64,000 nt of DNA from Anaerolineae bacterium (GCA_027021705.1 JALUTT010000164.1:19310-83309); one strand, 5' to 3'. Positions 3-41,911 are shown, counted from the first letter of the stretch. Notes: generated by a model from the letters alone, not told the origin. Translations and numbers: made by a program.

Positions 3-3000
3 ATTGAGCAATACCGTAGGACGTATGGTGACAATCCCTGGCCCTCCACAGTCAAGGCCCTGTTGGTGCAATCGGCTCACGACCTGAACGATGGAACAAG
101 CTGGTACAATCCAGGCCCTGATTACGCTTCTGGGTACGGCTTGGTTGATGCGAAAGCCGCTGTAGACCTGGTACGTGCGCAGGCAATTCGGCAGGACACC
201 ATTGACGTGGATGACGAGATTGATGTCTTTTCTGTATGGGTTATGACAGGGACTACCCAGGTCAAATTCACCCTGGCATGGGACGACCCAGCTGCGGTCG
301 AAAATGCTAACTCCACCCTGATCAACGATCTCGACTTGTTAGTGATTGATCCGAACGGGGACTCGTATCACGCATGGGTCCTCGAACCTATGACTCCGAC
401 CCTTGATGCGACGACCGGATGGAATGACAAGGATAACCTAGAACAGGTGCTTGTATCGGATCCAACCGGTCTGCCCCCTGGAAAATGGGAGATATGGGTC
501 TGGGGATGGGACGTGCAACAGGGGCCTCAAGATTACTCGCTGGTATCTGAGATGCTCTTTGACATCTTGAAGCCGCGAGGAGATGGACAAGTTTACGCAG
601 GCCCGGCATCCAGCCCTCAGAAAATCGTCATAGAGACCACCAAGCCCAGAGGTGGACTGGATACAAGCCAATTCCAAGTAATGATCGGCAAACAACCGGC
701 CCGGATTCTGACTCTCTACGAAGGGAGTGATCGGTACGTGCTTGAAGTGATGCCGGCCTCGCCCCCCGCCAACGGTAGCTACGATCTCTCCGTTATGATC
801 CCTGCAGCCTCGGTCTGGAATGTTAAAGAAGAAGCTGTCCTGTTTGCCGACGTAGCGAACGTAGATGTAGTTCTCACCATTGATCGCTCAGGAAGCATGG
901 GCACTAGTAAAATGGAAGCAGCCAAGGAAGCCGCCAAGCAGTTTGTGGACCTGATGCAATACGGCGATATGGTCGGCGTGGTGAGTTTCGACGACCTGGT
1001 TGAAACGAACTTTCCCCTGACCACGATTGAGCCCCCCCCTTCTGTTCCTCCTGCCTTCCACGATGATATGGAAGCAGGCACAAGCAACTGGATTGCTGAT
1101 ACCCCGTGGGCACTAACGACGGCTTCGTCCTTCAGCCCCTCTCACGCATGGACGGATAGTCCAGGCGGCAACTACGAGAACAACCTGAACATCTCTTTAC
1201 AGACTGCTACTCCCATCAGTGTTTCTAGTACGATTATTACCCCGGTTCTCCGCTTCTGGCACCGGTATGAACTTGAGCCGTGGGATGATCGAGGATATGT
1301 TGAAGTATCCACCGATGGTGGCAGTAACTGGATACACCTAGTTACTTTCACGGGGATCAATCCCACCTGGCATCAAGTTGAGTTGGACCTCAGCAACTAC
1401 AAAGGGCAGTACATTCTTGTCCGGTTCCGGCTCTCAACGGACTCCAGCACAACGTACGATGGCTGGTACATTGATGATGTGACGATAGGCCAAAGTAACG
1501 CCAATGCCAAAACATGGGCTAAAGACGCTATTGATTCGCTTTACAGCCGAGATATGACTTCCATTGGCGGCGGGTTGCAGCGTGCCCAAGAACAGCTATC
1601 CACGCGAGGTAATGCGAACCATCCTTGGGCCATCGTTCTGTTGAGTGACGGTCTGGAAAACAGGACGCCCTATGTCATAGATGTGCTACCTACCATCAAG
1701 GCCAGTAAGACAGTGGTGCATACGATTGGACTTGGTTCAGATGCCGACGAAGCTTTGATGCTGGATATTGCCTCCCAGACCGGAGGTACCTACAACTTCG
1801 CTCCCACCCCGGAGGAACTCTCAAGAGTTTACAACACGATTGCTGGTACAGTCGCTGATCGCCAGACCCTGCTCGCCATAACAGGCATTGCCCAACAGGG
1901 GGTAACAGATCAGATAGATGTCGTCGTGGATTCAACGATATCCGAGGCAACCTTCTCCATAAGCTGGTCTGATAGCAACAGTACCCTTGACCTGGAACTC
2001 CGCAAACCGAATGGGGATATCATTGATCCCACAGTCGCCGCAAGTGACCCGAACCTTGAATATGTAGCGGGTTCAACGTACCGGTATTACCGCATCAAGA
2101 AACCCGCCCTTGCCGTCGGTGTGTGGCAAATGCAAGTCACAGGAGGATTGATCTCAACATCTCAAGAGGAAGGTTACACCACTCTGACCTCGGGTGAGCC
2201 CTATGTGGCGCGCGTCACCGCCCAGACGAGCTTGACCATGCGATTCTACCTTGACCGCGATAGCTACCTCACGACTGAACCGATCAAGCTTATCGCGACT
2301 TTGTCGGATGATCAGCCTATCTTGGACGCTACAGTGACCGTCTCAATCCAACCACCCTCTCAGGCCGCCTACGCCATTAGGTCGAGCCAGTGGGTCGAGA
2401 CCAACGGCGACACCATACCCGACCCGGCAAAGGCTGCCGAGATTCAAGCACGATTTACCCAAAGGACCACGTCGGTAACCCTGTATGATGACGGTCTACA
2501 CGATGATGGTGAGGCCGACGATGGCGTATATGCTAACGCCTTCGGTGGGACATTCGACCCGGGGACTTACACCTTCTACGCATCGGCAAGCGGTACGTCC
2601 AATATAGGTGAAGCGTTCACCAGACAATCGGACATCGCAACATACATCGCTCCGAACCCTTCCCCGAATATCCATCAGATTTTCCTGCCTATGGTGACTC
2701 GCAATCTTGCCGGAAGAGCTGTCTACAATTGGCTCGATGCCACTGCCGGCGGCACCATCGTGGCAAATGGTGATGACACCTATGAATACGTTGACCTCCC
2801 GTTCGCCTTTAGCTTCTATGGCAACACCTATACGGGACTGTACGTGTCCTCAAACGGGTTCGTCAGCTTCGGCTCGGGATACGCTACTCACAGAAACCAT
2901 TGCATTCCCAGCGCCAGCGCTCCCAACAACGCTATCTACGCTTTCTGGGACGATTTGACACCCACGGGCGGCAGTAATGGCAATGTTTACGTGAAACAGA

Positions 3001-3248
3001 TTGACAGCGATACTGTCGTCATCGAATGGTATCGTGTCAGGAAGTACGGCACTGCTGACTACCAGACGTTCGAGATTGTTCTGAGAAGTGACCACTCAGC
3101 GACCCTGCAGTACCAATCTGTGAGCAATACCGACTCGGCGACAGTAGGTGTGGAGAACGCCACGGGTACGCTTGCCCAGCAATACATCTGTAACGGCACG
3201 GGGACACCTCCCACCAACCGGTCGGCGATCCGGTACACAACTCCGTAA
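3..3248 (+). CDS. 5'-truncated S8 (subtilisin-like) peptidase fused to vWA (with an inserted jelly-roll domain), a choice-of-anchor-X/CLCA-like beta domain, an internal IFLPMVTR motif and a C-terminal nidogen-like domain
   Basis: The frame is open from base 3 (IEQYRRTYGDNPWPSTVKALLVQSA...GYGLVDAKAAV, typical of an S8 C-terminus). It contains MIDAS DRSGS, LLSDG, LYDDGLHDDGEADDGVY and LPFAFSFYG...VSSNG...AFWDDL. Confidence 0.8.
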   Translation: MEQYRRTYGDNPWPSTVKALLVQSAHDLNDGTSWYNPGPDYASGYGLVDAKAAVDLVRAQAIRQDTIDVDDEIDVFSVWVMTGTTQVKFTLAWDDPAAVENANSTLINDLDLLVIDPNGDSYHAWVLEPMTPTLDATTGWNDKDNLEQVLVSDPTGLPPGKWEIWVWGWDVQQGPQDYSLVSEMLFDILKPRGDGQVYAGPASSPQKIVIETTKPRGGLDTSQFQVMIGKQPARILTLYEGSDRYVLEVMPASPPANGSYDLSVMIPAASVWNVKEEAVLFADVANVDVVLTIDRSGSMGTSKMEAAKEAAKQFVDLMQYGDMVGVVSFDDLVETNFPLTTIEPPPSVPPAFHDDMEAGTSNWIADTPWALTTASSFSPSHAWTDSPGGNYENNLNISLQTATPISVSSTIITPVLRFWHRYELEPWDDRGYVEVSTDGGSNWIHLVTFTGINPTWHQVELDLSNYKGQYILVRFRLSTDSSTTYDGWYIDDVTIGQSNANAKTWAKDAIDSLYSRDMTSIGGGLQRAQEQLSTRGNANHPWAIVLLSDGLENRTPYVIDVLPTIKASKTVVHTIGLGSDADEALMLDIASQTGGTYNFAPTPEELSRVYNTIAGTVADRQTLLAITGIAQQGVTDQIDVVVDSTISEATFSISWSDSNSTLDLELRKPNGDIIDPTVAASDPNLEYVAGSTYRYYRIKKPALAVGVWQMQVTGGLISTSQEEGYTTLTSGEPYVARVTAQTSLTMRFYLDRDSYLTTEPIKLIATLSDDQPILDATVTVSIQPPSQAAYAIRSSQWVETNGDTIPDPAKAAEIQARFTQRTTSVTLYDDGLHDDGEADDGVYANAFGGTFDPGTYTFYASASGTSNIGEAFTRQSDIATYIAPNPSPNIHQIFLPMVTRNLAGRAVYNWLDATAGGTIVANGDDTYEYVDLPFAFSFYGNTYTGLYVSSNGFVSFGSGYATHRNHCIPSASAPNNAIYAFWDDLTPTGGSNGNVYVKQIDSDTVVIEWYRVRKYGTADYQTFEIVLRSDHSATLQYQSVSNTDSATVGVENATGTLAQQYICNGTGTPPTNRSAIRYTTP

Positions 3249-3310: not shown

Positions 3311-3412
3311 AAACCTATGCTTGCCTTCAGCCCCCTAACTCTAGTACGAAGCTGGAAATAGCTTACTCGGTCAGCAAAGTACCCTTTCAAGGAACGTGTG
3401 AGGAGGTTGGAA

Positions 3413-4726
3413 ATGAGGAGGCCACCCTTGATCTGCCTGCTGGGCGCTGTGCTAGTGACCTACTTATTCATAGGGATATGGAAGGCTACCCAGGCTCAAG
3501 GGAAAGTAGAGCACCAGCTTTGCATTGCCTTGGACGGCTCCGGAAGCATCTCAACTGATGACTTCGCCCTTCAAGTCACCGGCCTGGCTAATGCTGTTGG
3601 GGATCCCTCAGTGGTTCCCCAAGATGGGTCCGTTGAATTCAGCCTCGTTCAATTCGGTACATCTGATCCAGAGGGTGCCCGGGTAGAAGTCCAGGCCGTG
3701 GTCATTGACAGTCCCCAGACCGCTTCAAGCGTCGTTGCCACCATCCGAGCGCTGGAGCAAGGTGGTAATGGTACACCTATGGACGCCGGAATCGACCTGT
3801 GTACAGCCCAGATCACCGGTTCGCTTCATTTCGCCGACGCGCGCCACCAGGTCATTAACTTGTCTACAGATGGACAACCGACCGACAGAACAGCCACCTT
3901 GGCAGCACGGGATGCAGCTGTAGCCGCCGGGATTGACGAACTGGATGCTGAAGCCGTTGGAACGAGTGCTGATGTGGACTTCCTGGCAACGTTGGTCTAC
4001 CCCCAGCCCGGCACTGTTATTCCACCTGGAAGCTACTCACCTGGTTTCGTCCGCGTGATCAGCTCGTTCGCCGATTTTGAGGAAGCCATCCGAGAAAAAC
4101 TGCGCTATGTTTTCCAATCAACTCCCACTCCTCCTCCCATTCCCCAGGCTTACCCCGTTTACCTCCCCCTCGTCGTCAAGCCGGCCGCCCTGCCCGACCT
4201 CATCGTCCGCTCCCTCACCGTCCAACCCTCCTCCCTTTGGGCCGGCCAGCCCGCCTCCATCACCCTCCTCATCGAAAACATCGGCACCGCCCCCGCCAAC
4301 GGCCCCTTCTGGGTGGACCTCTACATCAACCCCGACCCCGCCCTGATGCCCCCCAAGACCAACCAGACCTGGGACCGGGCCGGCAGTCAGTTCGGCATCG
4401 CCTGGCTCATCACCCCTTCCCGCTCCCTCGCCCCAGGCGACCAGATCACCCTCACCTCTCAAGACTACGCCGACGACTGGAGCTTCTGGCCCGGCTACTT
4501 CACCCGCGTCGGCGACCAGGTCCTCTACGCTCAGGTGGACTCCTACAACGGCTCTTCCCCCTTCGCCGCCGTCGAGGAGTCGGACGAGAGCAACAACGCC
4601 TTCGGCCCGGTCTTGGTTCCCGTCGTCTGCCCTGTCACCTTGGGCGAGAGCTGCCTCCCCCTGGGAGACCAGGGCTTCGACCGGCCCTTCCGGCCCGCGC
4701 CCCGGCCTCTCCGGCCTCGACCTTAG
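3413..4726 (+). CDS. Secreted DUF1194-like vWA protein with an internal YPVYLPLVVK motif and a C-terminal CARDB-like domain
   Basis: ATG 3413 follows AGGAGG; signal peptide; LDGSGS MIDAS, LSTDG; PDLIV...NIGT...VEESDESNN CARDB signature. Confidence 0.8.
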   Translation: MRRPPLICLLGAVLVTYLFIGIWKATQAQGKVEHQLCIALDGSGSISTDDFALQVTGLANAVGDPSVVPQDGSVEFSLVQFGTSDPEGARVEVQAVVIDSPQTASSVVATIRALEQGGNGTPMDAGIDLCTAQITGSLHFADARHQVINLSTDGQPTDRTATLAARDAAVAAGIDELDAEAVGTSADVDFLATLVYPQPGTVIPPGSYSPGFVRVISSFADFEEAIREKLRYVFQSTPTPPPIPQAYPVYLPLVVKPAALPDLIVRSLTVQPSSLWAGQPASITLLIENIGTAPANGPFWVDLYINPDPALMPPKTNQTWDRAGSQFGIAWLITPSRSLAPGDQITLTSQDYADDWSFWPGYFTRVGDQVLYAQVDSYNGSSPFAAVEESDESNNAFGPVLVPVVCPVTLGESCLPLGDQGFDRPFRPAPRPLRPRP

Positions 4727-5183
4727 AGGCTGTCACCCTCCCGCAGGTCACGCGGTGCCCGGCGACAGCGATGGTTTATCGGAGGCTGCCTTGACGCGCT
4801 TCAGACCGTGGGGGGAATCTGCAGGCGGGTTAGCTTAGTAACGCTCTTGGAGGAAAGAACGATGGAGAAGAGAGGACTTCGATGGTTCGTGATGATGGTC
4901 TTTCTGGCCAGCCTGCTGGTGGTAGGGCTTCCCGGTCGGGGGGCGGCGGCGTTGGGGGTGGGGGTGCAGTTGACGCCCCGCCCGACGGTGCCGCCGGGCA
5001 CGGTGCCTCCGCCGACGCCCTGCCCGCCGACCTCGACGCCGGCGTTGGCTCCTTCACCGACGCCGGCCCCGCCGCTGCTCGCTTCGCCGACGCCGACCTC
5101 GGTGGTCATCCTGCCCGAGGCCGGAGCTGCCCCGTCCGGTCCTGGGGTCTCGCTTCTGGTCGTCCTGGGCCTGCTGGCGGTGG
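4151..5183 (+). repeat. Copy 1 of a ~1 kb near-identical duplicated cassette (YLPL motif + CARDB + intergenic + LPEAG gene)
   Basis: Aligns by eye with 21864-22875, with few substitutions and two small indels. Confidence 0.95.
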
Positions 5184-5233
5184 TCGTCGGGTTGGCCTGG
5201 CGATGCCAATGGCGGGCAAGAGGGACTGTCTGA
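4862..5233 (+). CDS. Small Pro/Thr-rich secreted protein with an LPEAG sortase-like sorting signal
   Basis: ATG 4862 follows GGAGG; signal peptide, PT linker, then LPEAG + hydrophobic helix + basic tail (WRCQWRAR). Confidence 0.75.
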   Translation: MEKRGLRWFVMMVFLASLLVVGLPGRGAAALGVGVQLTPRPTVPPGTVPPPTPCPPTSTPALAPSPTPAPPLLASPTPTSVVILPEAGAAPSGPGVSLLVVLGLLAVVVGLAWRCQWRARGTV

Positions 5234-5343
5234 GAAACCCCCTGAACCCGACTCCGGTGAGCTACCCTTATCGCTGGGCACTGCCCAACCTGCGGAGGAT
5301 TAAGGGCATCAAAATACCTAAATCCACAGCGAGAGGTGAAAGT

Positions 5344-8300
5344 ATGAAGGGAGATGGAAAATTTTTCAGCATATTGCCTATCCTGCTAGTCCTGGCCTTG
5401 CTTGCGAGCGGAGCACTGACAGCGCGGAAGCCTCAGCCAGTCTCTACGCCCGCGTTGGTGACAGCAGCAGAGGGACTCCGCTCCTCCTCGGAGGGCTCCA
5501 TCGCCACCCTCTCTCCACTCCCGCCCAGCGAGCAAGGAGAGGGTGCCAGAAGACAGAATGAGAGCACAGCCTCCGTGGACGAAGCCGTTCGCGCCCATGC
5601 TCAGAACCTACTCGATAGCCTCCCCCTCGACTTCATCCCCAACCAAGGACAGGTAGACGAACAGGTGGACTTCTACGTTAAGGGTCGTGACAAACTCATT
5701 TACTTTACCCCCCAGGGCCTCACCTTCGTCCTCACCACCATCCTTGAAACGAACAGCACAGTCGGGATAGACAACATACTGAACCCCTCATCACCACCCA
5801 CCGCTCCTCATCCGCAATCTGCTACCCGCTGGGTCGTCAAACTGGACTTCGTGGACGCCAACCCCGACGTGCATCCCGTGGGCGAGGAGAAGACCGACAC
5901 CACCGTCTCCTACTTCAAGGGCTCCCCTGACCAATGGCACACCGGCATCCCCACCTATCGCCGCATCGTCTACAAAGACCTGTGGCCGGGGATTGACCTG
6001 GCCTTCACCGGCACGGTCAACGAGCTCAAGTACGAGTTCATCGTCCGTCCGGGAGCAGACCCGGACCGGATCCGTCTGACCTACCGAGGTGCGGAGGTGG
6101 TCCAGGCTGCTGACGGCTCTCTGGAGATCACCACCCCCGTCGGCGGCTTCACCGACGTCTCCCCCACCGCCTACCAGGAGATTGAAGGCCGCCGGGTGCC
6201 TGTGTCGGTGGCTTACGACCTGGCCCCCCCGGTCGCCGACCCGCAACCTGCAACCCGCCACGTACGATTCGCCGTCGGCCCTTACGACCCCACCCGCCCG
6301 TTGGTGCTCGACCCCGCCATCTTGATCTACTGCGGCTACATCGGTGGCACGGGCGGTGACTATGGCCTAGGCATTGCCGTGGATGAAGCAGGAAATGCCT
6401 ACGTTGTAGGCCAAACTTACTCCTCTGAAAGCAGAGGGTTTCCCGTGTCCGCCGGACCGGACCCGACTTTCAACGATGATGATGACCCAGATGCTTTTGT
6501 CGCCAAGGTGCGAGCGGATGGGACAGGGCTAGACTACTGCGGCTATATCGGCGGTGCAAACGAAGACTCTGGCTGGGACATCGCTGTGGATGGGGCAGGG
6601 AATGCCTATATCGTAGGCACGACTTACTCCTCTCCTAGTGAGGGATTTCCTGTGACCGTCGGGCCAGACTTGACCTTCAATGGCTCCAAGGACGCTTTCG
6701 TCGCCAAGGTGCGGGCCGATGGAACGAGGCTGGACTACTGCGGCTACATCGGTGGGACAGATGAGGACTCCGGGTGGGGCATCGCCGTGGATGGAGCAGG
6801 GAATGCCTACATCGTGGGCCGAACCTACTCCTCTGAAAGCGAGGGCTTCCCCGTAGCCGTTGGGCCGGATTTAACCTTCAATGGTGATGACAATTCGGAT
6901 GCCTTCGTCGCCAAGGTGCAGGCGGATGGAGCAAGGCTGGACTACTGTGGCTACATCGGTGGCATAGACAACGATCTGGGCTGGGACATCGCCGTGGATG
7001 AGATAGGAAATGCCTACATCGTGGGCACAACTTACTCCTCTTTCGGCGAGGGCTTTCCCGTGGCCGTCGGGCCGGACTTGACCTTCAATGATGATGATGA
7101 TGAGCCAGATGCCTTCGTCGCCAAGGTGCGGGCGGATGGAACAGGGCTGGATTACTGTGGCTACATCGGTGGGACAGACGAGGACTCCGGCTGGGGTATT
7201 GCCGTAGACGGAGCAGGGAATGCCTACGTTGTGGGTACAACTTACTCCTCCCCCGGTGAGGGCTTTCCCGTGGCCGTCGGGCCGGACTTGACCTTTAACG
7301 GCCTCAAAGATGCCTTCGTCGCCAGGGTGCGAGCCGACGGGAGGTGGCTCGACTACTGTGGCTACATTGGCGGGTTGGATTGGGACGAAGGTCTCGGCAT
7401 TGCTGTAGACAGGGTAGGGAACGCCTACGTCGCAGGCACGACTCACTCCTCCCCTAGCGAGAACTTTCCCGTGATCGTCGGGCCGGACCTGACCTTCAAC
7501 GGTGGCTACAAGGACGCTTTCGTAGCCAAGGTGCAGGCCGGCGGAGTAAGGCTCGACTACTGTGGTTACATTGGCGGCTCAGCTTCTGACTACGGTTACG
7601 GCATCGCCGTGGATGGGACAGGAAATACCTACGTTGTGGGCACAACCGACTCCTCCCCCATCGAGGGCTTCCCAGTAACCATTGGACCGAGTCTGACCTT
7701 CAACGGCTACAGAGACGCTTTCGTGGCCAGGATATGGGCAGAGAGTGGATCAGGGCCCTTTATCCTCCCAGTGTATCCCGGAACTCACACCATCAGCAAC
7801 ACTGTTATGCAAGGCGGAACAACTTACCGCTACTTCCGCTTGCTCGATTCGACCCACAACCCCATATCCAATGCCACTATCACCCTCAGCACTGGCAGCA
7901 CCGCCACCACTGATGCTCAAGGCTACTTCACCGCCACCATTGCCGCTGATTCTCTAGGAGGTGTCGGAAGCTACATGGTAAGCATTCAAAGCGTGACTTA
8001 CGGAGGTCAAACTTATGATACCGCTGGGCAGCCTGCTTTTCCCGTTCAGGTCACCGATCGGCGCTATTCCTATGCTTGGAGCTATGGAGCGTCTACAAAG
8101 CTTAAAGGTGGCATCTCTGCCGGCCTTATCGCTTACCTGCAATATACCACCTCAGGTGGCATGGAACTCAAGCTAGATGAAAGCGACCCCAACATCTCCT
8201 CAGATGACGTTGTTTCGATGAAAGAGGACTTCAGTGACGAGGTTGGCATCGGTGGCGGCATAGGGATTGAGGGAGAAGTAAATATCCTTATCTTGAAGAT

Positions 8301-12589: not shown

Positions 12590-12595
12590 CAGGAT

Positions 12596-25648: not shown

Positions 25649-25766
25649 TACTGCCTAGCGGCCTCGATAAGGTGCTTTTCAGAACCCTGCTTGCTCCTCT
25701 ACCGCTTCAAGCAACCTGGTTGAAGAGGGCCACCGCACGACAAAATATGCTCACGGGAGGTGATTG

Positions 25767-27998: not shown

Positions 27999-28547
27999 GG
28001 CTAGTCGAAGGCTCCGCCGCCATCCTCGACCACACTGCCGCCCAGGACCCTTAGGGCAACCTCGTCCTCCTGTGGCAGGGTTCTCTCCCGAAGGGGTGGA
28101 TGTCTTCTATGCCACCTATGATGAGACTTTCAACGCCTTCAGCCTGGTCGCCCAACTGACCCACGATCAGCTACTTTTCCCGCGGCCCTCCGGCTGAACA
28201 ACCCAGAGACGGGGCCGGTGGTAGCTCAGGTCACCTTGGGAAGTCTGGAGACCGGTGCCAAGGAGCAGGCCCAGGCGGTGTGGGATGCTTCGACGACCGC
28301 TGTCGGCTGGCATCAGGCCTACGCCATCGTGGACCCAACGGACGGGATCACGGAGGCCGATGAGGAGAACAACCTCGGTTGGGCAGGGGTGGGACTTCTG
28401 CCCGACCTGGTGCTGCGGCCCACGGCAGTGATCACCGGCATCAACGCCGATGGGACCCAGGCGGCGAGCCTGTGGGTCTTCGGCGCGCAGGTCTGCGCCC
28501 GAACTGCTCATTTTCGACCGTTGGCCAATCTCAAACGGGCACGCTAG
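27812..28547 (+). pseudogene. Decayed fragments of another surface protein (beta-rich repeats + CARDB)
   Basis: Plausible peptides in shifting frames: WRRNPAGELMGTT..LYWS..SWSAPQ; QDP*GNLVLLWQG; GVDVFYATYD; AIVDPTDGITEADEENN..LPDLVL. Confidence 0.65.
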
Positions 28548-28639
28548 ACAATGCATTATTCGCGAGGCCCTGCACCACTGTCCGGCTCAACTAACTATCA
28601 CGCTTCAACCAGCTGCATAGTTCGTGAGGAGGAAAAAGG

Positions 28640-34600: not shown

Positions 34601-35563
34601 ACTTTCACCGCCTTCCCGACCATGACCGGTGGTATTTACACCGCGACCCTCATCGTAAAGACCGATGATCCGGTCAACAGCAGCCTTGACCTTCCGGTGA
34701 CTATGACTGTCGTCTATGCGCCGGTTTGCAGCTTTACGGCCAGCAGCCCAGACGATCTGGGCATGACCACTATCTTTACCAACACCACCGACGAGGGCTA
34801 CTCACCGACCACTTATCGTTGGAACTTTGGCGACGGAAGTGGGGTCAGCGCTGCAGCCAATCCCACCCACACGTACAACCTGCCCGGTCTCTACACCGCC
34901 GTCCTGACCGCCACGAACGCCTACGGCGCCAATGTCTGCACGGCCACGGTATCGGTCGAGGGTGTGGTGGCCGGCTTTACCTCCAACAGCCCGGTCCTGC
35001 TGGGCGAGGAAATGGTCTTTACCAACACCACCGTCGCCAACCCAGGCATCGTGCAGTGGATGTGGACTTTTGGCGACAGCGGAATTGCCTACACCGAGAA
35101 CCCAGTCCACACCTACACGGCTCCCGGCACCTACACCGTGACTCTGCTCGCGGCCATCGCTCCCAGCGGTCCGAACAGCCCAGAGGCACTGGAGAACGTC
35201 TACGACTTTTACGTGGACACCGTGGAGGTCATCACCGCATGCCAGCCAGTGACCGGTGCAAGCTTTAGCTGGTTGCCGGCCACACCGGTAGAGAACGAGA
35301 CAGTGACCTTCACTGGGACAGTGGCAGCTGGAACATCGCCCATCACCTACACCTGGGCCTTTGGCGACGGCGCGACGGCGAGCGGAGCCACCGTAGCCCA
35401 CGCTTATACATCGGCCGGCAACTACACGGTGTGGATGACAGCCACCAATTGCAACGGTACAGGCGTGTCGGTCATCTCGGACACGCTGGCCATAGCAGCG
35501 CCCGTATCTTCCATGCACCCCGTCTATCTGCCGCTCATCGGCAAAAATACAAGCGGCAACTAG
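28640..35563 (+). CDS. Giant secreted multidomain protein (N-terminal PPD..GPNH..RWGDY domain, carboxypeptidase-regulatory-like Ig domains, jelly-roll domains, a propeller, 3 PKD domains) with a VYLPLIGK tail
   Basis: GAGGAGG RBS; signal peptide; GTLSGTVT..G.PI.GA; WxFGDG/S PKD motifs. Confidence 0.85.
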   Translation: MNRRKLFNLVFTAMLLLGLLPAMMSIAQTSPRQRESMTREEGIQTNTPTAPQQALRPVVSLPLKHDVSPPLSSIKPIPPKPGEVLREIPRLPMPKALASQSKGRALGPILQDRPGTINMAPTIQNFEGINNVNGVLPPDTQGDVGPNHYVQWVNLSFAIWDKDGNLLYGPADGNTLWVGFGGICESNNDGDPITLYDPIADRWLMSQFALNFPNDFHQCIAISQTGDPTGAWYRYDYQVSTTKMNDYPKFGVWPDAYYMTANQFDGSTFAWAGAGVWAFERDKMLTGDAAQMVYFDLYGVNPNYGGMLPADLDGWTLPPSGTPGLFVEWDDSDWLDDPADTLRIWEFHVDWDTPANSTFGIGGAPNYMVTTADVDPDMCGGSRNCIPQPGGTALDAIADRLMYRLQYRNFGSYQTLVSNHTVDVDGIDHAGIHWFELRNNGGGWNMYQEGVYAPDSDHRWMGSVALDRQGNMAMGYSVSSGDTYPSIRYAGRLAGDPLGTLPQAEVEIIAGSGYQQHSSGRWGDYSMIAVDPVDDCTFWYTQEYYEVVGTAPWQTRIASFQFPSCLGPTGTLSGTVTEDGSGTPIIGAKITAETNPTFVTYSQPPNGAYELSAIPTGTYTVTAQAYGYLPQTSTGVQVYSGTVTTQDFQLSAAPSYVISGTVTDATTGWPLYARIDIDGYPGDAIWTNPETGFYSITLVAGITYNFDVAAWVDGYLPENRDVAVADNATENFALEADLATCNAPGYEPSYAYLEDFEADDGNYTHGGDEDEWEWGTPIGWPDGCADGTSCWGTDLDDTYGDNADNWLMSPVITLNGMHGQNTTLAWQQAWEIESSTWDHAYAEITLDGGATWIEMWSHTGGTATEDWQELKYEFTVPASEQIQIRWRMTSDGSITYRGLYVDRVSILRACVPLPGGLVVGNVYDDNTGDPLVGAEVENEDSYATTTEATPNDPAINDGFYTLFSPTGSKTFTATMSGGYAPDVASVTVVQSDTVRQDFYLAAGWLSYAPPALEVTLELGMTTSLPLTLSNNGGVPANYELLELDKGWGPLGPFESPLYVVKPSKSYSLTAEGLTLLDPPQAPPYAAGDIIQAWPTGLTYAWGLGYNTLATDLWLGNIGAGGGDDLDYRFLPDGTNTGDAIDTSSWIGYWAGDITFNQNTGMLWQVNVGGDNCIYELDPVSLAPTGNNICPGFSTSQRGLAYDPTTDTYFAGGWNDSMIHHFASDGTMLDEVNVSLAIAGLAYNPDTQHLFVIVNASPNLVYVLDATNNYAVLGQFSVASFSDYGGAGLAMDCDGTLWAVDQQAQTVYQFESGESTTMCSFDVLWLSEDPISGTVASMANTPITVTFDAGQVAQPGTYYAQLKVKDDTPYDVPNAPVTMTVTAPPTWGKLNGTVTGLGYCDADPNPLEGAQIHIQSANAAVTTTTVLSEDFETWLPTGWTIVTNGGDCTWESTATTGRPNYAGGDGEAADADSDWCGSGTTMDTELWTPAIDLSGYDEAKLDFVAAYNDITAGGGDYFAVDVSSDGGATWTNLLSWNEDHDATGPGEAVSIDLTPYLSDQVVVRFHYVAPGWDWWAEVDQVRVIGSVYTGIWSLETDENGYYQVWFDEAYSPVTVTVTHPDHEDGMVTEVAVTSQMTITQDFDLRWLKPCGSASPPFMEVTVVRGTSETLPLVLSNDGAMDMAFEMRETTKTLSLPLPTTNRAAGHGEWLYRASQGVALSTNTGEQKLAYPAAYRWEPAAPSQFNVLVYADDFIHTPPNTYVDRALQALGIAYTAHYDGDFSGFAADLSNGGPWDLVIFENTSYNSNGVGFPEMLAYVQDGGKLAAEIWTMLWDNTDPLYAEMGVSYVSNDVAAPPVYWWAPSHNIFNVPESAPEWLTRNCPARWSCGQYLDPVSGVSIALAGYTTPGPNVGQATLILRNDEQTVYKGFADITTDADIDGDGTPDGIELWENIATGLLEGFGGADIPWLDEDPIAGTVSTDSSVPVSITFTAFPTMTGGIYTATLIVKTDDPVNSSLDLPVTMTVVYAPVCSFTASSPDDLGMTTIFTNTTDEGYSPTTYRWNFGDGSGVSAAANPTHTYNLPGLYTAVLTATNAYGANVCTATVSVEGVVAGFTSNSPVLLGEEMVFTNTTVANPGIVQWMWTFGDSGIAYTENPVHTYTAPGTYTVTLLAAIAPSGPNSPEALENVYDFYVDTVEVITACQPVTGASFSWLPATPVENETVTFTGTVAAGTSPITYTWAFGDGATASGATVAHAYTSAGNYTVWMTATNCNGTGVSVISDTLAIAAPVSSMHPVYLPLIGKNTSGN

Positions 35564-35878: not shown

Positions 35879-38800
35879 CTACCGACCGCCTTCCTTCAAG
35901 AGCAAAGGAAGGAAGAGGACGTGTTGGAAGGGCTCCCCTCCCGACCCAGGTGACGCCAGCAAGAGGTAGGTGCCCAACGCCGTCACCGGCGCCACCACCG
36001 CTTGCTGCCCCTCGTCCAGATGGGCCGGGACCTCCACCCACGTCTGACGAACCGGGTCCCATCGGTAGAGCCCCAGGGCCTCCGGCCTCACCGACGACGT
36101 GATGAGGGCGTCGTCGTAGTGCAGCTTTAGGACCGCCGGCCGCTCCAGGCTCGCCAACGCCCCCGACGCCGTGATGTCGTAGGGATGGCCCACCGGCACC
36201 AACCCCTGAGGTGGCGGCCCCGGCACCGCCCCCGGCGGCGTGATCACCACGTAGGCTCCATCGCCCGGCAGGCTGCCGGACGCCAGGTGCAAACTCAGGT
36301 TCCCATCGTTGGCGTAGAGGTCCCAGCTTCGATCCCCGGTCACCCGATGCAGCCGGTAGGTGGCCTGCAACCAGACCAGCCGCTCACCCACACTCCCCAC
36401 TGCCCGAATGCGCCCCATCCCCCGCGCCGTGGCCTCCAGAGAGACGGCCCCGCTATAGATGCCCGTGGCAGGGCTGTAGGCCAGGGTGGGAACATAACCG
36501 GTCTCCCCGCCCGGCTCCGTGATGACAACGGTGGGGTCTGCGTCGGGGCCAAAGCCGAGCAGGAAGATCAGCAAGTCAATCCGGTCGGGGTCCTGGCCCG
36601 GCTCGGCCACCACCCGCAGGTGGGGGATCGAACCGGTGCTCTGGACTGCCGAACCGGTCACCGGGGCCATCGTCAGGTTGAGGGTCATCGCCGTTCCCAC
36701 GGTGACGCTCCCCGCCAGCCCCCCGTCGAAAGAGGCAGCCCGCAACGTGTCTCCTGCAATGGCCCCGTAGACCGCCAGGCGGCCATTGCCGTCGGTGAAC
36801 CCCTGGCCGATAACCCGCCCATCCTGTTTGTAGAGGGCGACGATGGCCCCCCAGTAAGGCCCTTGGGGACCGTAGACGGTCAACTGACGAGGAGGGGGTG
36901 AGGGACCTTCTTGATGGACCTGGACCAGGGGCCACGCCGGCAGGCTGGATGGCATCCCCTCGGGCCCGGCCACGACACCTCCCCGATCGGCCGGGGTTGC
37001 GAGCCGCCAGCGCGGTGGGTCTTGGACGTCCCCGTACATCCGGCCCAGCGTCTCCCAATCCGACTCGCCGCGAAGCTGCCATTGAGCCGTATTCTCGCAC
37101 CGGTCAGACCAGAGGCCGGGAACGCCCCGCATCGCCAGTTCGCTGCTGGTGTAGTGGTAATCCATCGCACTGGCGTTGGTCGCATCGGTAGCGGGATTGC
37201 GGTTCTCCGGTCCGGTGCAAGAGGCCGGCACCTCACCGATCAGATTCCCGTCCTGGTCGAACAAGTAAGCAAAGTACTCATCGTACAGGTAGAGGGCGTA
37301 GTGGCCAAACTCATGGGCCAGGGTACGGTAGCCTTCGGGCCGGTCCCACGCTCCCTGGTTGCTGCTGTGACCATCCCACCCCCGGCCTATCCGAATGACG
37401 TGGGACCTATCATCGGAGGTGATGCCCCCCACGTAAGCGTGGGGCCGGACGACGTTCTTGGTCGCCACCTGCACATCGGCCTCCGCCCAGTAAGCCCCAT
37501 CGTCGTAGAGCGCCACCTGTCCCAAAGCCATCTGCCCATCGGTGAGGTCGTAGAGGTAGTCGGAGGCGTAGCGGACCGCCCGGGCGATCTCGTCCAGGTA
37601 GGCTTGGGTAGCATCCCATTCGATGGAGACGAGCAAATTGAAGAGGATGAGAGGGTGGCTCTCCCGAAGGACCAGTCGCTGCTCGCCGGAACCGCTGACG
37701 ACGAAGGGACGAGCGCTGCCGTCGGTATCCCAGATCAGGCTGGTCCGATAGACGCGGTAGGCCCAGCCCCCGTGGCCGGCCCGGGCCGTGGGTTGCTCCG
37801 CTTGGAGGGCCAGGGCGACCAGCGTGGTCCCCATATCCAGCGGACCGGCGTTGAGCAACCCGGCCCGGTCGGTGGTCCCAACGGCCTCGCCATCGGCATA
37901 GACCGTGGCCCCGGCGACGGGATTGCCCCCCTCATCCACCACCCGAATGAACCAGGGAGCCGCCACCCGGAAGGGAGGACTCTTGCCGTCCTGGGCAGGC
38001 CATAGGATAGGACCAAGGCGGTAACCAGGCTGAGCCCGGATGCGGAAGACCACGTTGTCGCTCTTGATCAGGTCCGCGCCGGCGTCCCAGACAAAGAGAT
38101 GCGACGTTCCCTCAGGCGAGGCAGAAAGCGCCGTCGTCCCATCGCCGCCGGGACCAGGCGTGGCCGGGAACCACGCCCCCCCACCGTTGGGCGAGAACTC
38201 CGGGAAGATGCGGGCGACAGGATCCCCCTCGGGATCGAAGAGGGTGTACAGAATCGAGACCTGGGTTTGGGTGATGATGTGGGGAGTTGGAGCGAGGGGC
38301 GCGTCGTGAGTGGGCCCAGGGCGGGGGATGACCACGTAAGGGGGATCGTTCACCGACGGAGCAGGGGTCCGTCGGGGGTTCCGGTAGAGCAGATTCCGGC
38401 TGACACTGCTCACCGCCAGGTCCAGGTCCCCATCGCCATCGTAATCCCCCCAAGCCAGGCCGGGGGTGCTATCGGCCTCGGCCGAGGACCAGACAGCCTC
38501 GGTCGCCAGCACCCCTCCGTCGTTGCGGTAGAGCCGGTTGGGCTGGCGATGGTTGCCCGCAACCAGATCCAGGTCCCCGTCGCCGTCATAATCCCCCCAG
38601 GCCAGGGCCGAGGTCCGATCCGACTCGTCCGAGGACCAGACCGCGCTGGTGGTCAGGACACCGTCGTCATTGCGGTAGAGCCGGTTGGGCTGCCCCGTCG
38701 CCGTCCCGTTGCCCACCGCCAGGTCCAGGTCTCCATCGCCGTCGTAGTCCCCCCATGAGAGGCTGGTGGTGTTGTCCTCCTCGGCCGAGGACCAGACGGC

Positions 38801-40606
38801 TTCGGACGTCAGCACGCCGCCGTCGTTGCGGTAGAGCCGGTTGGATTGGCCGGCGAAGTCCGGTCGCCCGTTGCCCACCGCCAGGTCCAGGTCCCCATCG
38901 CCGTCGTAATCCCCCCAGGCAACGCTGCGGGTGGTGTCGGCCTCGTCGGAGGACCAGACCGCGCCGGTGGTCAGGACACCGTCGTCGTTGCGGTAGAGCC
39001 GGTTGGGCTGACCGTCGTTGCCCACGACCAGGTCCAGGTCCCCGTCGCCGTCGTAATCCCCCCAGGCGACGCTGCGGGTAGCGTCGGCCTCGTCGGAGGA
39101 CCAGACCGCGCCGGTGGTCAGAACGCCGCCGTCATTGCGGTAGAGCCGGTTGGGTTGGCCGTCGTTGCCTACGGCCAAGTCCAGGTCCCCGTCGCCGTCG
39201 TAATCCCCCCAGGCGACGCTGCGGGTAGCGTCGGCCTCGTCGGAGGACCAGACCGCGCCGGTGGTCAGGACACCGTCGTCATTGCGGTAGAGCCGGTTGG
39301 GCTGCCCATCGTTGCCCACGACCAGGTCCAGGTCCCCGTCACCGTCGTAATCCCCCCAGGCCAAGCCGGAAGAAGGCTCCTCCTCGGCCGAGGTCCAAAC
39401 CGGGCCGTCCAACACCACGCCGTCGTTGCGGTAGAGCCGGTTGGGCTGATTGAGGTTTCCTACCGCGATGTCCAAGTCTCCATCGTTATCGTAGTCCCCC
39501 CAGGCCACCCCTATCGTGTAGTCCACCTCGGCTGAGGTCCAGATGGCCTCGGCCGTCAACACACCACCGTCGTTGCGATAGATTCGGTTGGGCACCCCCC
39601 CGTGGGAACCGCCTCCCGTCAGCAGGTCCAGATCACCATCAGCATCGTAGTCCCCCCAGGCCACGCTCCAGATCAGATCCTGCTCGACAGAAGACCAGAC
39701 GGCCCCGGTCGTCAGCATCCCACCGTCGTTGCGGTAGAGCCGATGGGGGGCCAGGCCGTTGCCGGCGACCAGGTCCAGGTCCCCGTCGCCGTCGTAGTCC
39801 CCCCAGCCGGCGTCGGTCGTGGGGTCCGACTCATCCGAGGACCAGACGGCGCTGGCCGTTAGCACACCGCCATCGTTGCGGTGGAGTTCGTTCACGCCGT
39901 TGCGCCCTACGGCCAGGTCCAGGTCTCCATCGTTGTCGTAGTCGCCCCAGAGCACGACGGACACGGGGTCCACGTCTGCCGAGGACCAGACCGCGCCGGT
40001 CGTCAAGGTTCCCCCATCGTTGCGATAGAGCTGGATCGGCTGTCCCCCGTTCCCGACGGCCAGGTCCAGGTCCCCGTCGCCGTCGTAGTCCCCCCAGGCA
40101 ACGCTGCGGGTGGTGTCGGCCTCCTCGGAGGACCAGACCGCGCCAGTGGTCAGGACGCCGCCGTCGTTGCGGTAGAGCCGGTTAGGCTGACCCTCGTTGC
40201 CCACCGCCAGGTCTAGGTCCCCGTCGCCGTCGTAATCCCCCCAGGCAACGCTGCGGGTGGTGTCGGCCTCCTCGGAGGTCCAAACGGCCACCGTGGTCAG
40301 CACGCCATGATCGTTGCGGTACAGGTGGTTGGGGCCGTTGTTGCCCACGACCAGGTCCAGGTCTCCGTCGTTGTCGTAGTCCCCCCAGGCTATGCTCCTG
40401 GTCACGGCCGCCTCTGTGGACACCCAGGCCGACGTGAAGGCAGGCGGGTCGGTCTGGGCCGCAAGGCGCCGATGGGGAGACAACAAGGGCAGAAGAAGGA
40501 TCGAGAGGGTGAGCCAGAGGCCAACGTTCCTCCGGCGATTGCCTTCAGAGGTGATGGCCGGCGGGGTGGCCGGTCTACTGCCGGATGAGAGAGGTCTATC
40601 GGACAT
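35879..40606 (-). CDS. Secreted FG-GAP/VCBS-repeat protein (14 repeats) with a CLCA-like Zn-metalloprotease domain, a GAIN/ZU5-like domain and an LFLPLLLK tail
   Basis: 14 x WGDYDxDGDLD; HEFGHYALYLYDEY; signal peptide. Confidence 0.85.
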   Translation of the reverse strand: MSDRPLSSGSRPATPPAITSEGNRRRNVGLWLTLSILLLPLLSPHRRLAAQTDPPAFTSAWVSTEAAVTRSIAWGDYDNDGDLDLVVGNNGPNHLYRNDHGVLTTVAVWTSEEADTTRSVAWGDYDGDGDLDLAVGNEGQPNRLYRNDGGVLTTGAVWSSEEADTTRSVAWGDYDGDGDLDLAVGNGGQPIQLYRNDGGTLTTGAVWSSADVDPVSVVLWGDYDNDGDLDLAVGRNGVNELHRNDGGVLTASAVWSSDESDPTTDAGWGDYDGDGDLDLVAGNGLAPHRLYRNDGGMLTTGAVWSSVEQDLIWSVAWGDYDADGDLDLLTGGGSHGGVPNRIYRNDGGVLTAEAIWTSAEVDYTIGVAWGDYDNDGDLDIAVGNLNQPNRLYRNDGVVLDGPVWTSAEEEPSSGLAWGDYDGDGDLDLVVGNDGQPNRLYRNDDGVLTTGAVWSSDEADATRSVAWGDYDGDGDLDLAVGNDGQPNRLYRNDGGVLTTGAVWSSDEADATRSVAWGDYDGDGDLDLVVGNDGQPNRLYRNDDGVLTTGAVWSSDEADTTRSVAWGDYDGDGDLDLAVGNGRPDFAGQSNRLYRNDGGVLTSEAVWSSAEEDNTTSLSWGDYDGDGDLDLAVGNGTATGQPNRLYRNDDGVLTTSAVWSSDESDRTSALAWGDYDGDGDLDLVAGNHRQPNRLYRNDGGVLATEAVWSSAEADSTPGLAWGDYDGDGDLDLAVSSVSRNLLYRNPRRTPAPSVNDPPYVVIPRPGPTHDAPLAPTPHIITQTQVSILYTLFDPEGDPVARIFPEFSPNGGGAWFPATPGPGGDGTTALSASPEGTSHLFVWDAGADLIKSDNVVFRIRAQPGYRLGPILWPAQDGKSPPFRVAAPWFIRVVDEGGNPVAGATVYADGEAVGTTDRAGLLNAGPLDMGTTLVALALQAEQPTARAGHGGWAYRVYRTSLIWDTDGSARPFVVSGSGEQRLVLRESHPLILFNLLVSIEWDATQAYLDEIARAVRYASDYLYDLTDGQMALGQVALYDDGAYWAEADVQVATKNVVRPHAYVGGITSDDRSHVIRIGRGWDGHSSNQGAWDRPEGYRTLAHEFGHYALYLYDEYFAYLFDQDGNLIGEVPASCTGPENRNPATDATNASAMDYHYTSSELAMRGVPGLWSDRCENTAQWQLRGESDWETLGRMYGDVQDPPRWRLATPADRGGVVAGPEGMPSSLPAWPLVQVHQEGPSPPPRQLTVYGPQGPYWGAIVALYKQDGRVIGQGFTDGNGRLAVYGAIAGDTLRAASFDGGLAGSVTVGTAMTLNLTMAPVTGSAVQSTGSIPHLRVVAEPGQDPDRIDLLIFLLGFGPDADPTVVITEPGGETGYVPTLAYSPATGIYSGAVSLEATARGMGRIRAVGSVGERLVWLQATYRLHRVTGDRSWDLYANDGNLSLHLASGSLPGDGAYVVITPPGAVPGPPPQGLVPVGHPYDITASGALASLERPAVLKLHYDDALITSSVRPEALGLYRWDPVRQTWVEVPAHLDEGQQAVVAPVTALGTYLLLASPGSGGEPFQHVLFLPLLLKEGGR

Positions 40607-40627
40607 CGGCGGTCTCCCTTCTTGCGC

Positions 40628-41911
40628 TCACCGGAGCACCACCGGCAGGTAGACCTGGTACGCTGCCACCTGCCAGCTCAGTTCCCAGAGGTCGAGGCGC
40701 GGTGTCGCGCCGGCCACCGTTGAGGAGAACGTAGCCCGTAGCCGGAGGGCAGGGTATTGGTGAGGATCGAGATGGCTAAGGTGGGTCCTGCTGACAACGT
40801 GGGTCAACAGCACCGTGCCGTTCAGGTCCAAGAGGTCCACCGTCAGCGTCGCGGTGGGAGGGCTCACCACGGCGGTGAAAGTCAAGCTCCCCCAGGCGGC
40901 TATCGCCATCGAGGGGGTGATGGGCTGCGAGAGGATGGTTCCCTCCCCCGGCGTGTTCGCCAGGACCACCCCCTGCTCGTCTGGAGATCCGCCGAGGGTC
41001 ACGTTGGCGCTCCCCGCCGGGTCAAGACCGCTGAAATCGTCGAAGTCGTCCCGCCACACCGGGGTGCTCATCAGAGCGTAGGTGGTGAAGCGCGACGTGG
41101 CGACTGTGAGATAGCGCTGCGCGGAGAAGAGCCGCCCTCCCAACCTCTCCCAGCGTCGGTGGAAGGCATCCCAGGCGAAGATGGCCAAGGTATGCGGGTC
41201 GGCGCCGGCCAACGTTGTCTCGTCGTAGTAAAACCGCAAGTCCATCGGCCTGTTGGTCACGAGGAGGGCACCGGCAGCCCGCACACTGTAGGGGCTGCCC
41301 ACAAGGCGGTGGCCGGGAGGAGGCGGACCGGGAGGCGCGAAACCGGGCACGATGACCACGTAGGTATCGGCAGGAAGGGTATCCGTGCCGACCAGGGTCA
41401 GTTGCAGGTTGCCATCCACGGAACGGATCGTCTGGAGGGTCGAGGCAGGCACGTAAGCCCGGTAGAAGTCCACCGTCCCCGTATCCAGGCCCGTCGTCGT
41501 GGTGATGCTCAGCGGTCCCGAGGCCCCGGTTCCCGGCGTGAAGCCCGGCGCCGTCGTGGTGTAGAGCTGGTCGGTATCCGAGTAGACCATCGTGTACGAA
41601 TCCTTGTCGTGGCCGGGACCGATGCCCACGTTAAGGAATACATCCCCATCCAGCTTCCCCACGCCTCCCGCCTTGATGAAAAGCGCCGTCCCATCCTGGC
41701 TGGGCACAACGTCGAGGAAGGGAGCGAGGGCAGATGCTTGCTGCTTCAAAGGAGGGGCACCACCTGTCGGTTCCGGGGCCGGCACCTGCCCGGCCACTGG
41801 CCTGACCGCGCTTTTGGCGGTAGAATAGAGGGTAGCCCCGGTCATCAAGAGGAGGCCGAGCAACAAGGTGATCAACCGCGTGTAACCGTTGGGACGATGC
41901 TTAGAGATCAT
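40628..41911 (-). CDS. Secreted protein sharing a ~220-aa module with the C-terminus of the downstream FG-GAP protein; VYLPVVLR tail
   Basis: ATG 41911 follows AGGAG; signal peptide; DGNLQL...YVVI.P...PGPPP.G...VG.PY is shared with 35879..40606. Confidence 0.8.
   Translation of the reverse strand: MISKHRPNGYTRLITLLLGLLLMTGATLYSTAKSAVRPVAGQVPAPEPTGGAPPLKQQASALAPFLDVVPSQDGTALFIKAGGVGKLDGDVFLNVGIGPGHDKDSYTMVYSDTDQLYTTTAPGFTPGTGASGPLSITTTTGLDTGTVDFYRAYVPASTLQTIRSVDGNLQLTLVGTDTLPADTYVVIVPGFAPPGPPPPGHRLVGSPYSVRAAGALLVTNRPMDLRFYYDETTLAGADPHTLAIFAWDAFHRRWERLGGRLFSAQRYLTVATSRFTTYALMSTPVWRDDFDDFSGLDPAGSANVTLGGSPDEQGVVLANTPGEGTILSQPITPSMAIAAWGSLTFTAVVSPPTATLTVDLLDLNGTVLLTHVVSRTHLSHLDPHQYPALRLRATFSSTVAGATPRLDLWELSWQVAAYQVYLPVVLR

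Follow-up and report, generated by a model that had tools for sequence, protein, structure and literature searches.

Nine surface-type proteins of an Anaerolineae genome share a short C-terminal peptide

The window analysed here is a 64,000-nucleotide stretch of contig C164 (positions 19310–83309) of the Anaerolineae bacterium genome G000 (5.19 Mb in 183 contigs, 94.9% complete, 4.5% contaminated), and its first 42 kb form an island of surface-type proteins built from VWA, MAM-like, choice-of-anchor X/J/B, LVIVD, SBBP, FG-GAP, PKD, DUF11 and CARDB domains. Nine open reading frames (ORFs) of this island carry, at or near the C-terminus, a peptide of the pattern [VLI][YF][LI]P[LMV]xx[KRQ] (hereafter ‘the strict pattern’), which an earlier examination of the DNA (the sequence-only reading) had proposed as a sorting or docking signal and which we refer to as the YLP-box (Table 1). 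A six-frame scan of the window recovered the strict pattern at 9/9 of the coordinates claimed and yielded ten matches in total, whereas 100 dinucleotide-preserving shuffles averaged 0.17 and never gave more than 1; the tenth match, at 35527–35550 on the minus strand, was rejected as an artefact, being the antisense of the copy at 35522. Six copies (ORFs C, F, H and L on the plus strand, ORFs M and N on the minus strand) lie 0–5 residues from the stop codon, and the other three (ORFs A, B and I) each lie 181 residues ahead of it.

All of the complete window carriers (8/8) have signal-peptide-like N-termini, and ORF A, truncated by the 5' end of the window, is full-length in G000 (C164:17722-22557, 1611 aa) and has a signal peptide. 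No window carrier contains a hydrophobic run of at least 15 residues in its last 60 residues. Both the export signals and the lack of a C-terminal transmembrane helix had been pointed out in the sequence-only reading, and both hold; so does its statement that the tag is unlike LPXTG and PEP-CTERM signals, there being no membrane helix in the last 60 residues. Its description of the carriers as otherwise unrelated is broadly right, but the box-containing modules of ORFs B and I are 94%-identical and ORFs M and N have a domain in common, corresponding to the C-terminal part of ORF M. The codons within the tag vary synonymously, the proline being written with four different codons and the Arg/Lys position with eight, and this freedom argues for selection on the peptide and not on a DNA element.

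Table 1. The YLP-box carriers of the window with their boxes and downstream domains, the PorU-like peptidase encoded elsewhere in G000, and untagged genes of the island.
Feature	Position	Strand	Description
ORF A	3..3248	+	cut at window 5' end; VWA, MAM-like, choice-of-anchor X/J surface protein; long form
Box IFLPMVTR (ORF A)	2679..2702	+	internal, 181 aa ahead of stop; NF053834 15.8–16.4 bits, NF050076 16 bits counting in-frame neighbours
Terminal NIDO-like domain (ORF A)	2703..3245	+	follows box; PF06119, E = 5e-07
ORF B	3398..4726	+	signal peptide, VWA/DUF1194, Pro-rich linker, box, CARDB, Pro-rich tail; long form
Box VYLPLVVK (ORF B)	4157..4180	+	internal; NF050076 15.4 bits, NF053834 12.9 bits
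CARDB beta-sandwich and tail ending RPLRPRP (ORF B)	4181..4723	+	PF07705; downstream half of long-form module
ORF C	4882..10221	+	DUF7948, SBBP beta-propeller, Ig-like domains; short form
Box LYLPLILQ (ORF C)	10189..10212	+	then DR, stop; NF053834 10.9 bits
ORF F	12967..15588	+	VWA, choice-of-anchor X; short form
Box VYIPLILR (ORF F)	15556..15579	+	then TP, stop; pattern match alone
ORF H	16762..19143	+	LVIVD beta-propeller, choice-of-anchor B; short form
Box VYLPLTSK (ORF H)	19111..19134	+	then GP, stop; pattern match alone
ORF I	19299..22439	+	DUF11 repeats; long form, same module as ORF B
Box VYLPLIVK (ORF I)	21870..21893	+	internal, followed by CARDB module at 21894–22436; NF053834 12.7 bits
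ORF L	28640..35563	+	2307 aa; PKD, MAM-like, choice-of-anchor J; short form
Box VYLPLIGK (ORF L)	35522..35545	+	then NTSGN, stop; NF053834 13.5–13.9 bits
ORF M	35879..40606	-	1575 aa, FG-GAP repeats; short form
Box LFLPLLLK (ORF M)	35894..35917	-	then EGGR, stop; pattern match alone
ORF N	40628..42007	-	conserved family without Pfam model; short form; probable start 41911
Box VYLPVVLR (ORF N)	40631..40654	-	stop directly after; NF050076 15.1 bits (40-residue tail), NF053834 13.8 bits
PorU-like C25 peptidase	C77:52271-55186 of G000		971 aa, box-tagged; outside window
ORF D	10328-11611		untagged; LVIVD protein, hydrophobic segment at N-terminus
TPR protein	11753-12589		untagged
ORF G	15722-16606	+	untagged; SdrD-B-like; ends LPVAGS, hydrophobic helix, RRRRQRQG

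The tails correspond to a catalogued motif

The tag is no undescribed one: the window tails are the YLP-box, a curated motif already catalogued by NCBIfam in two models, NF050076 (sort_motif_YLP, curated cut-off 15 bits) and NF053834 (ultrashort_CTERM, 10 bits), both of which carry the description ‘YLP-box putative sorting motif-containing protein’. When 39–54-residue pieces were scanned, one or the other model matched 6/9 window copies. In the scan of the whole genome NF053834 exceeded its cut-off for ORFs A, L, N, B, I and C, and NF050076 for ORFs A and B; ORF N passed NF050076 on its 40-residue tail. The full-length window proteins gave no YLP-box match with the NCBIfam models, because models this short get lost in long queries. 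Across G000 the matches number 68 for NF050076 and 56 for NF053834.

The NCBIfam YLP-box and the window tails are the same thing, a box of 10–11 residues that ends exported proteins; the entries provide a label, and we found no mechanism, enzyme or paper attached to them. The name ‘ultrashort CTERM’ does not cover those carriers in which the box precedes a terminal domain (see below). Searching for ‘YLP motif’ returned unrelated eukaryotic work only, and the Haft myxosortase preprint (10.1101/2023.06.07.544157) has 0 occurrences of ‘YLP’, ‘Chloroflex’ and ‘ultrashort’. The orphan signals that this preprint describes are comparable to the YLP-box in being candidate C-terminal sorting signals without a known sorting enzyme (10.1101/2023.06.07.544157); going by the abstracts, its signals have an invariant Cys in common and MYXO-CTERM is tripartite, both unlike the YLP-box.

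The box is concentrated at the C-termini of large exported proteins

Among the 4008 ORFs of at least 80 aa called in G000, the strict pattern matches 59 times, 45 of these within the last 14 residues, while per-protein shuffles (n=20) gave 5.8 matches overall and 0.15 C-terminal ones. About six matches lie deep within cytoplasmic-looking proteins, which is the level expected by chance; an equal abundance in cytoplasmic proteins, which would have spoken against a sorting role, is thus not what we see. A relaxed pattern yields 71 C-terminal carriers, at least two of which (C50:32531 and C176:10981) are false positives resembling cytoplasmic regulators, and histidine-kinase ends such as ‘...TFTIWLPA’ mimic looser patterns. 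The carriers are large (median length 896 aa vs 327 aa for all G000 ORFs), and 53/71 satisfy a crude signal-peptide rule as compared to 673/4008 ORFs overall; in several of the 18 carriers that fail the rule, an over-long N-terminus precedes what is plainly a signal peptide. The observation of a shared tail is real and far from chance.

The G000 consensus reads: aromatic or His, R/Q/D, V/I/L, Y/F, L, P, L/V, V, L and then R/K. In the corresponding logo the peptide is hydrophobic on both faces (positions -2, 0, 2, 4 and 6 on one, 1, 3 and 5 on the other) and its closing residue is basic. In the short form, the box is followed by 0–6 residues and the stop codon; in 18/71 G000 carriers it lies at the extreme end, with no leaving group, and among orthologues the tail beyond the R/K spans 0 to 8 residues. 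Judging from these ends, the tail after the box is dispensable.

A second form of the signal places the box ahead of one terminal domain

The sequence-only reading had noted three internal copies, each followed by one more domain. These copies are real, but they are not odd exceptions. The internal boxes on exported G000 proteins are each followed by one domain of 176–189 residues, and four unrelated kinds of domain occupy this position: NIDO-like (ORF A), CARDB (ORFs B and I), MAM-like (contig C49) and lamin-tail (contig C132). Most commonly, the domain of this long form is CARDB and continues into a Pro-rich tail, of which [LI]PxRP is a frequent end.

A search with the ORF B module retrieved 2631 cluster representatives at E <= 0.001, of which 1076 also reach E <= 1e-10. 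We inspected 149 of the matches listed: 130 with a single C-terminal module, on proteins of widely differing length, and 19 with tandem CARDB domains. Among these listed matches, 97/130 singles have a strict box 141–218 residues from the end (median 174), just ahead of the ‘PDLVV’ start of the domain, and several of the other singles show variant boxes at the equivalent place; a terminal tag in addition was found in 0/130 singles, and a box in 0/19 tandem proteins. G000 itself has four complete CARDB modules, each with its own box upstream; partial CARDB-like matches occur twice more, in both cases on carriers whose tag is terminal. As judged by this arrangement, the internal copies are a recurrent second form of the same signal, and the CARDB version is widespread.

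As to the tail of the long form, P.RP occurs in the last 16 residues of 45/131 long-form proteins vs 0/131 in a control segment, often with a ‘VTG.NP’ stretch ahead of it; the RPLRPRP end of ORF B conforms to [LI]PxRP.

The box lies outside the adjoining folds in two structure models

A box without any sorting role could be no more than an end-piece of the structure, could form the final strand of the domain ahead of it, or could be a relic of shared ancestry. Models of one long-form and one short-form carrier bear on this. In the AlphaFold2 model of the ORF B module (43-sequence alignment; mean predicted local distance difference test score, pLDDT, of 90.7), coil extends over residues 1–26, with the first strand beginning at residue 27; the box, residues 13–20, is predicted to be coil yet ordered, with a block-mean pLDDT of 83–84. 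The fold is a CARDB sandwich, with 2kl6 and 3idu as best PDB matches (target TM-scores 0.78–0.84). The model of ORF N (65-sequence alignment, mean pLDDT 86.6) has an N-terminal helix at 10–28 and, after a linker of low confidence that runs up to residue 60 or so, a beta-rich body modelled with confidence, the last strand of which spans 405–415; the tag, 420–427, is predicted as coil, with a pLDDT of about 60 for the last block. ESM Atlas gave no usable match for ORF N. In both cases modelled the box is thus predicted to lie outside the adjoining fold, and the concern raised in the sequence-only reading that the tag might simply be the last strand of the preceding domain is not borne out by either model.

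What favours an end-piece is a common strand ahead of the tag, HF[ST]DFAL, in 8/71 carriers. In the fuller form [ID]HF[ST]DFAL.G it lies in the 32 residues upstream of the box in these eight, ORFs H and M included, and occurs in 0/3937 other G000 ORFs in the matching C-terminal segment; the eight seem to share a terminal domain preceding the tag. Across the carriers, though, the domains ahead of the box belong to many unrelated folds (PKD, Ig-like, LVIVD-associated, FG-GAP, C25 catalytic and VWA), the box is kept while the flanking residues vary, and homologues swap it for known anchors, as described below. Together with the two models, this leaves an end-piece without sorting function very improbable.

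The box takes the place of known anchors and is not a general sortase signal

Window carriers match the choice-of-anchor X, J and B domains of NCBIfam, which by definition point to a place where anchors stand. Among the VWA/DUF1194 homologues of ORF B, P0122 ends in LPVTG and a helix where ORF B has the box, six (P0128, P0131, P0133, P0134, P0138 and P0152) have PEP-CTERM ends, and further ones end in other helix-plus-basic anchors. In the ORF N family (50–88% identity), the tag stands at the end of 103/120 homologues, and 64 of these have no residue beyond the box. In four others an extra domain takes its place, and two relatives finish not in the box but in a weakly dockerin-like segment (Pfam E = 0.005, below cut-off). 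Sequence comparison thus indicates that the box stands where sorting signals stand in homologues.

The box shares with LPXTG signals, the substrates of sortases, a C-terminal place on Sec-exported surface proteins, an LP core and the same cargo domain families. The LPXTG signal, however, has a hydrophobic helix and a charged tail, and the box has neither, being followed by 0–6 residues. With PEP-CTERM signals, which are paired with exosortase as PGF-CTERM signals are with archaeosortase, it shares the position on homologous cargo; again, the box comes without the membrane helix.

Could the box be a variant sortase signal, LPx[TV], handled by ordinary sortases? Some copies do read LPLT or LPVT, and G000 encodes two sortases. 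One further observation concerns a paralogue of the PorU-like peptidase discussed in the next section: in family f35, this paralogue (genome G215, locus L007, ending LYLPLTIADY) adjoins a 302-aa sortase gene, with matches also in G048, G058, G094, G139 and G183. Apart from the missing helix and charged tail, it is the distribution of sortases that argues against the idea. The G000 sortases have classical substrates of their own, about seven LPx[TA]G-plus-helix proteins including window ORF G. In a sample of 301 Chloroflexota genomes, sortase (PF04203) is found in 206, and it is equally common in tag-poor lineages: 176/268 genomes with fewer than five box matches have it, as do 20/20 members of the tag-poor family f2. 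Conversely, G071, a single-contig genome, has no PF04203 match, yet 8/8 of its box matches are perfect C-terminal tags. Handling of the box by ordinary sortases accordingly has, in our estimate, next to no likelihood. Exosortase/archaeosortase (TIGR04178) gave 0 matches in G000 (94.9% complete). As far as gene content can tell, sortase is excluded as the general reader of the box, and so is exosortase.

A box-tagged PorU-like C25 peptidase is co-distributed with the tag, with counter-examples

A possible reader of the box in G000 is a C25 peptidase encoded outside the window (Table 1). Against the NCBIfam model ‘T9SS sortase PorU’ (NF033707; T9SS, type IX secretion system) it scores 243 bits over positions 10–731 of 1095, the cut-off of 420 not being reached, and its best PDB match is PorU (6za2). 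Across 75 homologues there is no variation at the catalytic residues His825 and Cys859, nor at the proline of the enzyme's own box. The 120 closest homologues, named ‘C25 family cysteine peptidase’ and originating from metagenome-assembled genomes labelled Anaerolineae, Thermoflexales and Chloroflexi, are box-ended in 103 (strict) to 110 (loose) cases, after a conserved NRTIVPW linker. The tags of this family favour Phe at the Tyr position (56 F vs 45 Y) and polar residues at box position 6, and cargo tags favour Tyr (52 Y vs 16 F in G000; 97 vs 4 in the ORF N family); this lean may be mere family drift.

PorU itself carries a T9SS C-terminal domain (CTD), and the parallel extends further: G000 has a PorU-like C25 protein with catalytic His and Cys that is itself tagged and co-distributed with the box, and long-form carriers, like CTD cargo of the T9SS, have a beta-sandwich domain at their end. 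The differences are as marked. The downstream domain in the G000 long form is CARDB and not a CTD, the signal is a linear box of 8–10 residues and not a domain, and five tag-bearing genomes either lack the enzyme or have a copy that is probably inactive. In G000, the T9SS C-terminal domain (TIGR04183) gave 0 matches at E <= 0.01, PorV (NF033710) gave 0 matches, and SprA_N (PF14349) also gave 0, a search that is uninformative because its control matched in no genome either.

PorU is described as cleaving T9SS cargo and transferring it by transpeptidation (PMC4560394; PMC4804311); its cutting is said not to depend on sequence (PMC4804311), which sets it apart from the reading of a linear box. 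By extension, the PorU-like C25 peptidase could read the box in a sortase-like manner, cut at or near it, thereby taking off the short tail or all of the long form's end domain, and perhaps pass the cargo to an envelope acceptor. To relate enzyme and tag, distribution was followed over the 301 genomes for four families and one alignment; the genomes are not independent of each other, and the co-distribution rests on about eight families. Strong C25 matches (E < 1e-40) are present in 26 of the 33 genomes with at least five box matches, the other seven having weak matches (three) or none (four), and in 16 of the 268 genomes with fewer, 252 being without a strong match. One unpublished genome, G203, is among the 33 and among the four lacking any match, and leaving it out gives 26/32; the equally unpublished G038, G264, G131 and G168 contribute to totals only. 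Cargo controls are far patchier: LVIVD occurs in 14/33 tag-rich genomes and the ORF N family in 1/33. The latter, present in only 1/301 genomes, was rejected as a part of the system.

The ends of the peptidases follow the same division. Of the 16 tag-poor genomes with strong C25, we inspected seven: the C25 protein ends untagged in G161, G242, G016, G050 and G100, which belong to families without a tag-rich genome, and in a box variant in G143 and G259. In the set of 16 loci retrieved, the box or a variant of it closes the PorU-like proteins of tag-bearing families, that of G143 included, and the C25 proteins of families f2, f8, f12, f22 and f39 are untagged. In f2 and f8 roughly the first 250 residues are missing as well, and the C25 proteins of the remaining three families show greater divergence.

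There are counter-examples. C25 gave no match at E <= 1 in the tag-bearing genomes G271 (99% complete, 4 contigs; 3/5 box matches within 6 residues of the stop), G258 (3/5) and G234 (2/4), nor at E <= 1e-5, the threshold searched, in G044, where 4/7 matches are real tags. In G012, G049 and G282 the C25 matches are weak and partial. G226 (99% complete) has 12 box matches, and in its sole C25 homologue the catalytic His is replaced by Gln and the Cys by Ser; this copy is probably an inactive pseudo-peptidase. The G226 homologue (locus L020) is still box-ended, with LFLPVIRR. Using the G000 PorU-like protein as a single query, which is less sensitive, returned nothing in five genomes, including two with weak matches to the Pfam model.

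Gene order offers the candidate no support either, as none of the neighbours of the PorU-like gene is conserved across families in the 16 loci: an LPxTG-type protein is encoded upstream in f19 (G223 and G011), and a protein of about 290 aa, with no relative in G000, in f35 and f4. Nor do the cargo ends fit general cleavage: in about a quarter of G000 carriers and, as given above, in the majority of tagged ORF N relatives, nothing follows the final residue of the box, which indicates that cleavage after that residue is not a general step. The invariant catalytic residues, the peptidase's own box, the likeness to PorU and the co-distribution thus speak for this enzyme, and the genomes without an active copy, the ends of the tags, the non-independent families and the lack of CTD and PorV matches in G000 speak against it. 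The distribution makes it the tag's most constant companion, yet not an obligatory one; overall we regard the PorU-like peptidase, the only named enzyme candidate, as a doubtful reader of the box, and a sortase-like reading by it as unlikely. A broader version, in which the YLP-box and the PorU-like C25 peptidase make up a surface-attachment pathway without type IX secretion, with a second reader where an active copy is lacking, is just as speculative. In such a pathway the peptidase would recognise the box, remove the downstream residues or the CARDB-type end domain (the counterpart of the T9SS CTD) and fix the cargo to the envelope.

A docking peptide would dispense with the enzyme

The genomes without C25 invite an explanation that needs no covalent step: the box could be a docking peptide, held in a groove or contributing an extra strand to an envelope scaffold, for instance a sheath, a surface layer or a protein anchored in the wall. 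This is the option that the sequence-only reading put first. A tag-bearing genome with neither C25 nor sortase, such as G044, would then need no enzyme, and the 18/71 G000 carriers without a leaving group would be no anomaly. The two hydrophobic faces and the closing basic residue fit a buried peptide, and the long-form box is modelled as ordered but not as a strand (pLDDT 83–84). The two dockerin-like ends among ORF N relatives are a hint in the same direction, albeit a weak one at E = 0.005. Yet a docking peptide could sit anywhere in a protein, and the strict C-terminal place of the box is typical of processed signals; no receptor for it was found, nor a box-less anchored copy of the CARDB module in G000, nor a conserved neighbour. 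Docking without a covalent step is, on balance, a tentative proposal that we think possible rather than probable.

A probable post-export sorting or retention signal

The reading that we favour, at a probability of roughly 0.6, is that the YLP-box is a post-export surface sorting or retention signal, acting as an exposed linear peptide on Sec-exported proteins of several Chloroflexota lineages. Once the protein has been exported and its signal peptide removed, the box would lie open as an extended, hydrophobic stretch with a basic residue at its end; an envelope factor specific to the lineage would bind it and hold the protein at the cell surface; and the box would thereby do the job that LPXTG and PEP-CTERM signals do on homologous proteins of other bacteria. 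Surface retention as the outcome is suggested by analogy with these signals, and we infer that a dedicated reader binds the box, possibly with cleavage. Given a sorting or retention role, we hold docking without a covalent step to be close to an even chance, cleavage or trimming of the box by an enzyme to be somewhat short of one, and something else to be improbable. The sorting or docking interpretation of the sequence-only reading is thereby upheld in part: the tag behaves as a sorting or retention signal, as seen from the NCBIfam label, the choice-of-anchor domains and the anchor swaps, and either a scaffold or an enzyme may read it.

Several results weigh against a sorting signal with a dedicated reader. 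Searches of gene neighbourhoods, for receptors and of distribution identified no such reader: in G000, BLAST clustering of the 305 non-carrier ORFs within three genes of a carrier revealed no recurrent enzyme (most of the recurrent neighbour groups are regulators, glycosyltransferases or further surface proteins), a search of G000 for a receptor turned up no anchored CARDB protein lacking a box, and the one named candidate fails in several genomes, among them G271, G258 and G234. The descriptors are noisy as well. The G000 ORF set is crude, as is the signal-peptide rule; the tags of ORFs F, H and M (3/9) are listed by neither NCBIfam model; and in control genomes NF050076 is above cut-off in 2/14 and NF053834 in 10/14, so that single matches are meaningless, only counts and position carry weight, and per-genome counts are noisy. 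The count for G143, for instance, is 0, even though a His-type tag closes its PorU-like protein. Our literature search found no paper on the YLP-box or an ultrashort C-terminal tag, none on C-terminal sorting signals or PorU in Chloroflexi, and no published experiment on the tag. Finally, instead of being retained at the surface, the tagged proteins may be released to the medium, or the box may have a role in secretion.

Other genes of the island and its surroundings

The longest ORF for ORF C shows a signal peptide only around residue 155, and because of this its true start is probably near 5344. ORFs B and I share a duplicated segment: 4151–5199 and 21864–22891 are 93.8% identical at the DNA level over 1058 bases, the duplication spanning the box and CARDB module of ORFs B/I plus the DNA upstream of ORFs C and J. 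Beyond the duplication, ORFs C and J are 75% identical (5620–7577 vs 23159–25116). ORFs J and K of the island are untagged. ORF K (25764–28600, plus strand; LVIVD) has an apparent frame change near its 3' end, with protein-like sequence continuing in other frames and a CARDB-like end at 28218–28547, where no box was found; a disrupted gene or a misassembly may lie behind this.

Downstream of the island lie genes for a TPR-CHAT protein, a sigma/anti-sigma pair, two Ser/Thr kinases, an M24 peptidase and SelB, among others. The gene for SelB, the selenocysteine-specific elongation factor (55585–57474, plus strand), is an ordinary gene; no tRNA gene was found.

Implications for the Chloroflexota cell surface

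To our knowledge, the cell envelope of the Chloroflexota is poorly understood. The YLP-box marks about 70 large surface-type proteins in G000 and recurs in several Chloroflexota lineages. To the catalogued motif the window adds the long form, the exclusion, as judged from gene content, of sortase and exosortase as general readers, and one enzyme candidate together with its counter-examples. A sorting signal of about ten residues without a membrane helix would, if true, be the shortest of its kind; identifying its reader would show how filamentous Chloroflexota build their surface, and would yield a very small tag for surface display.

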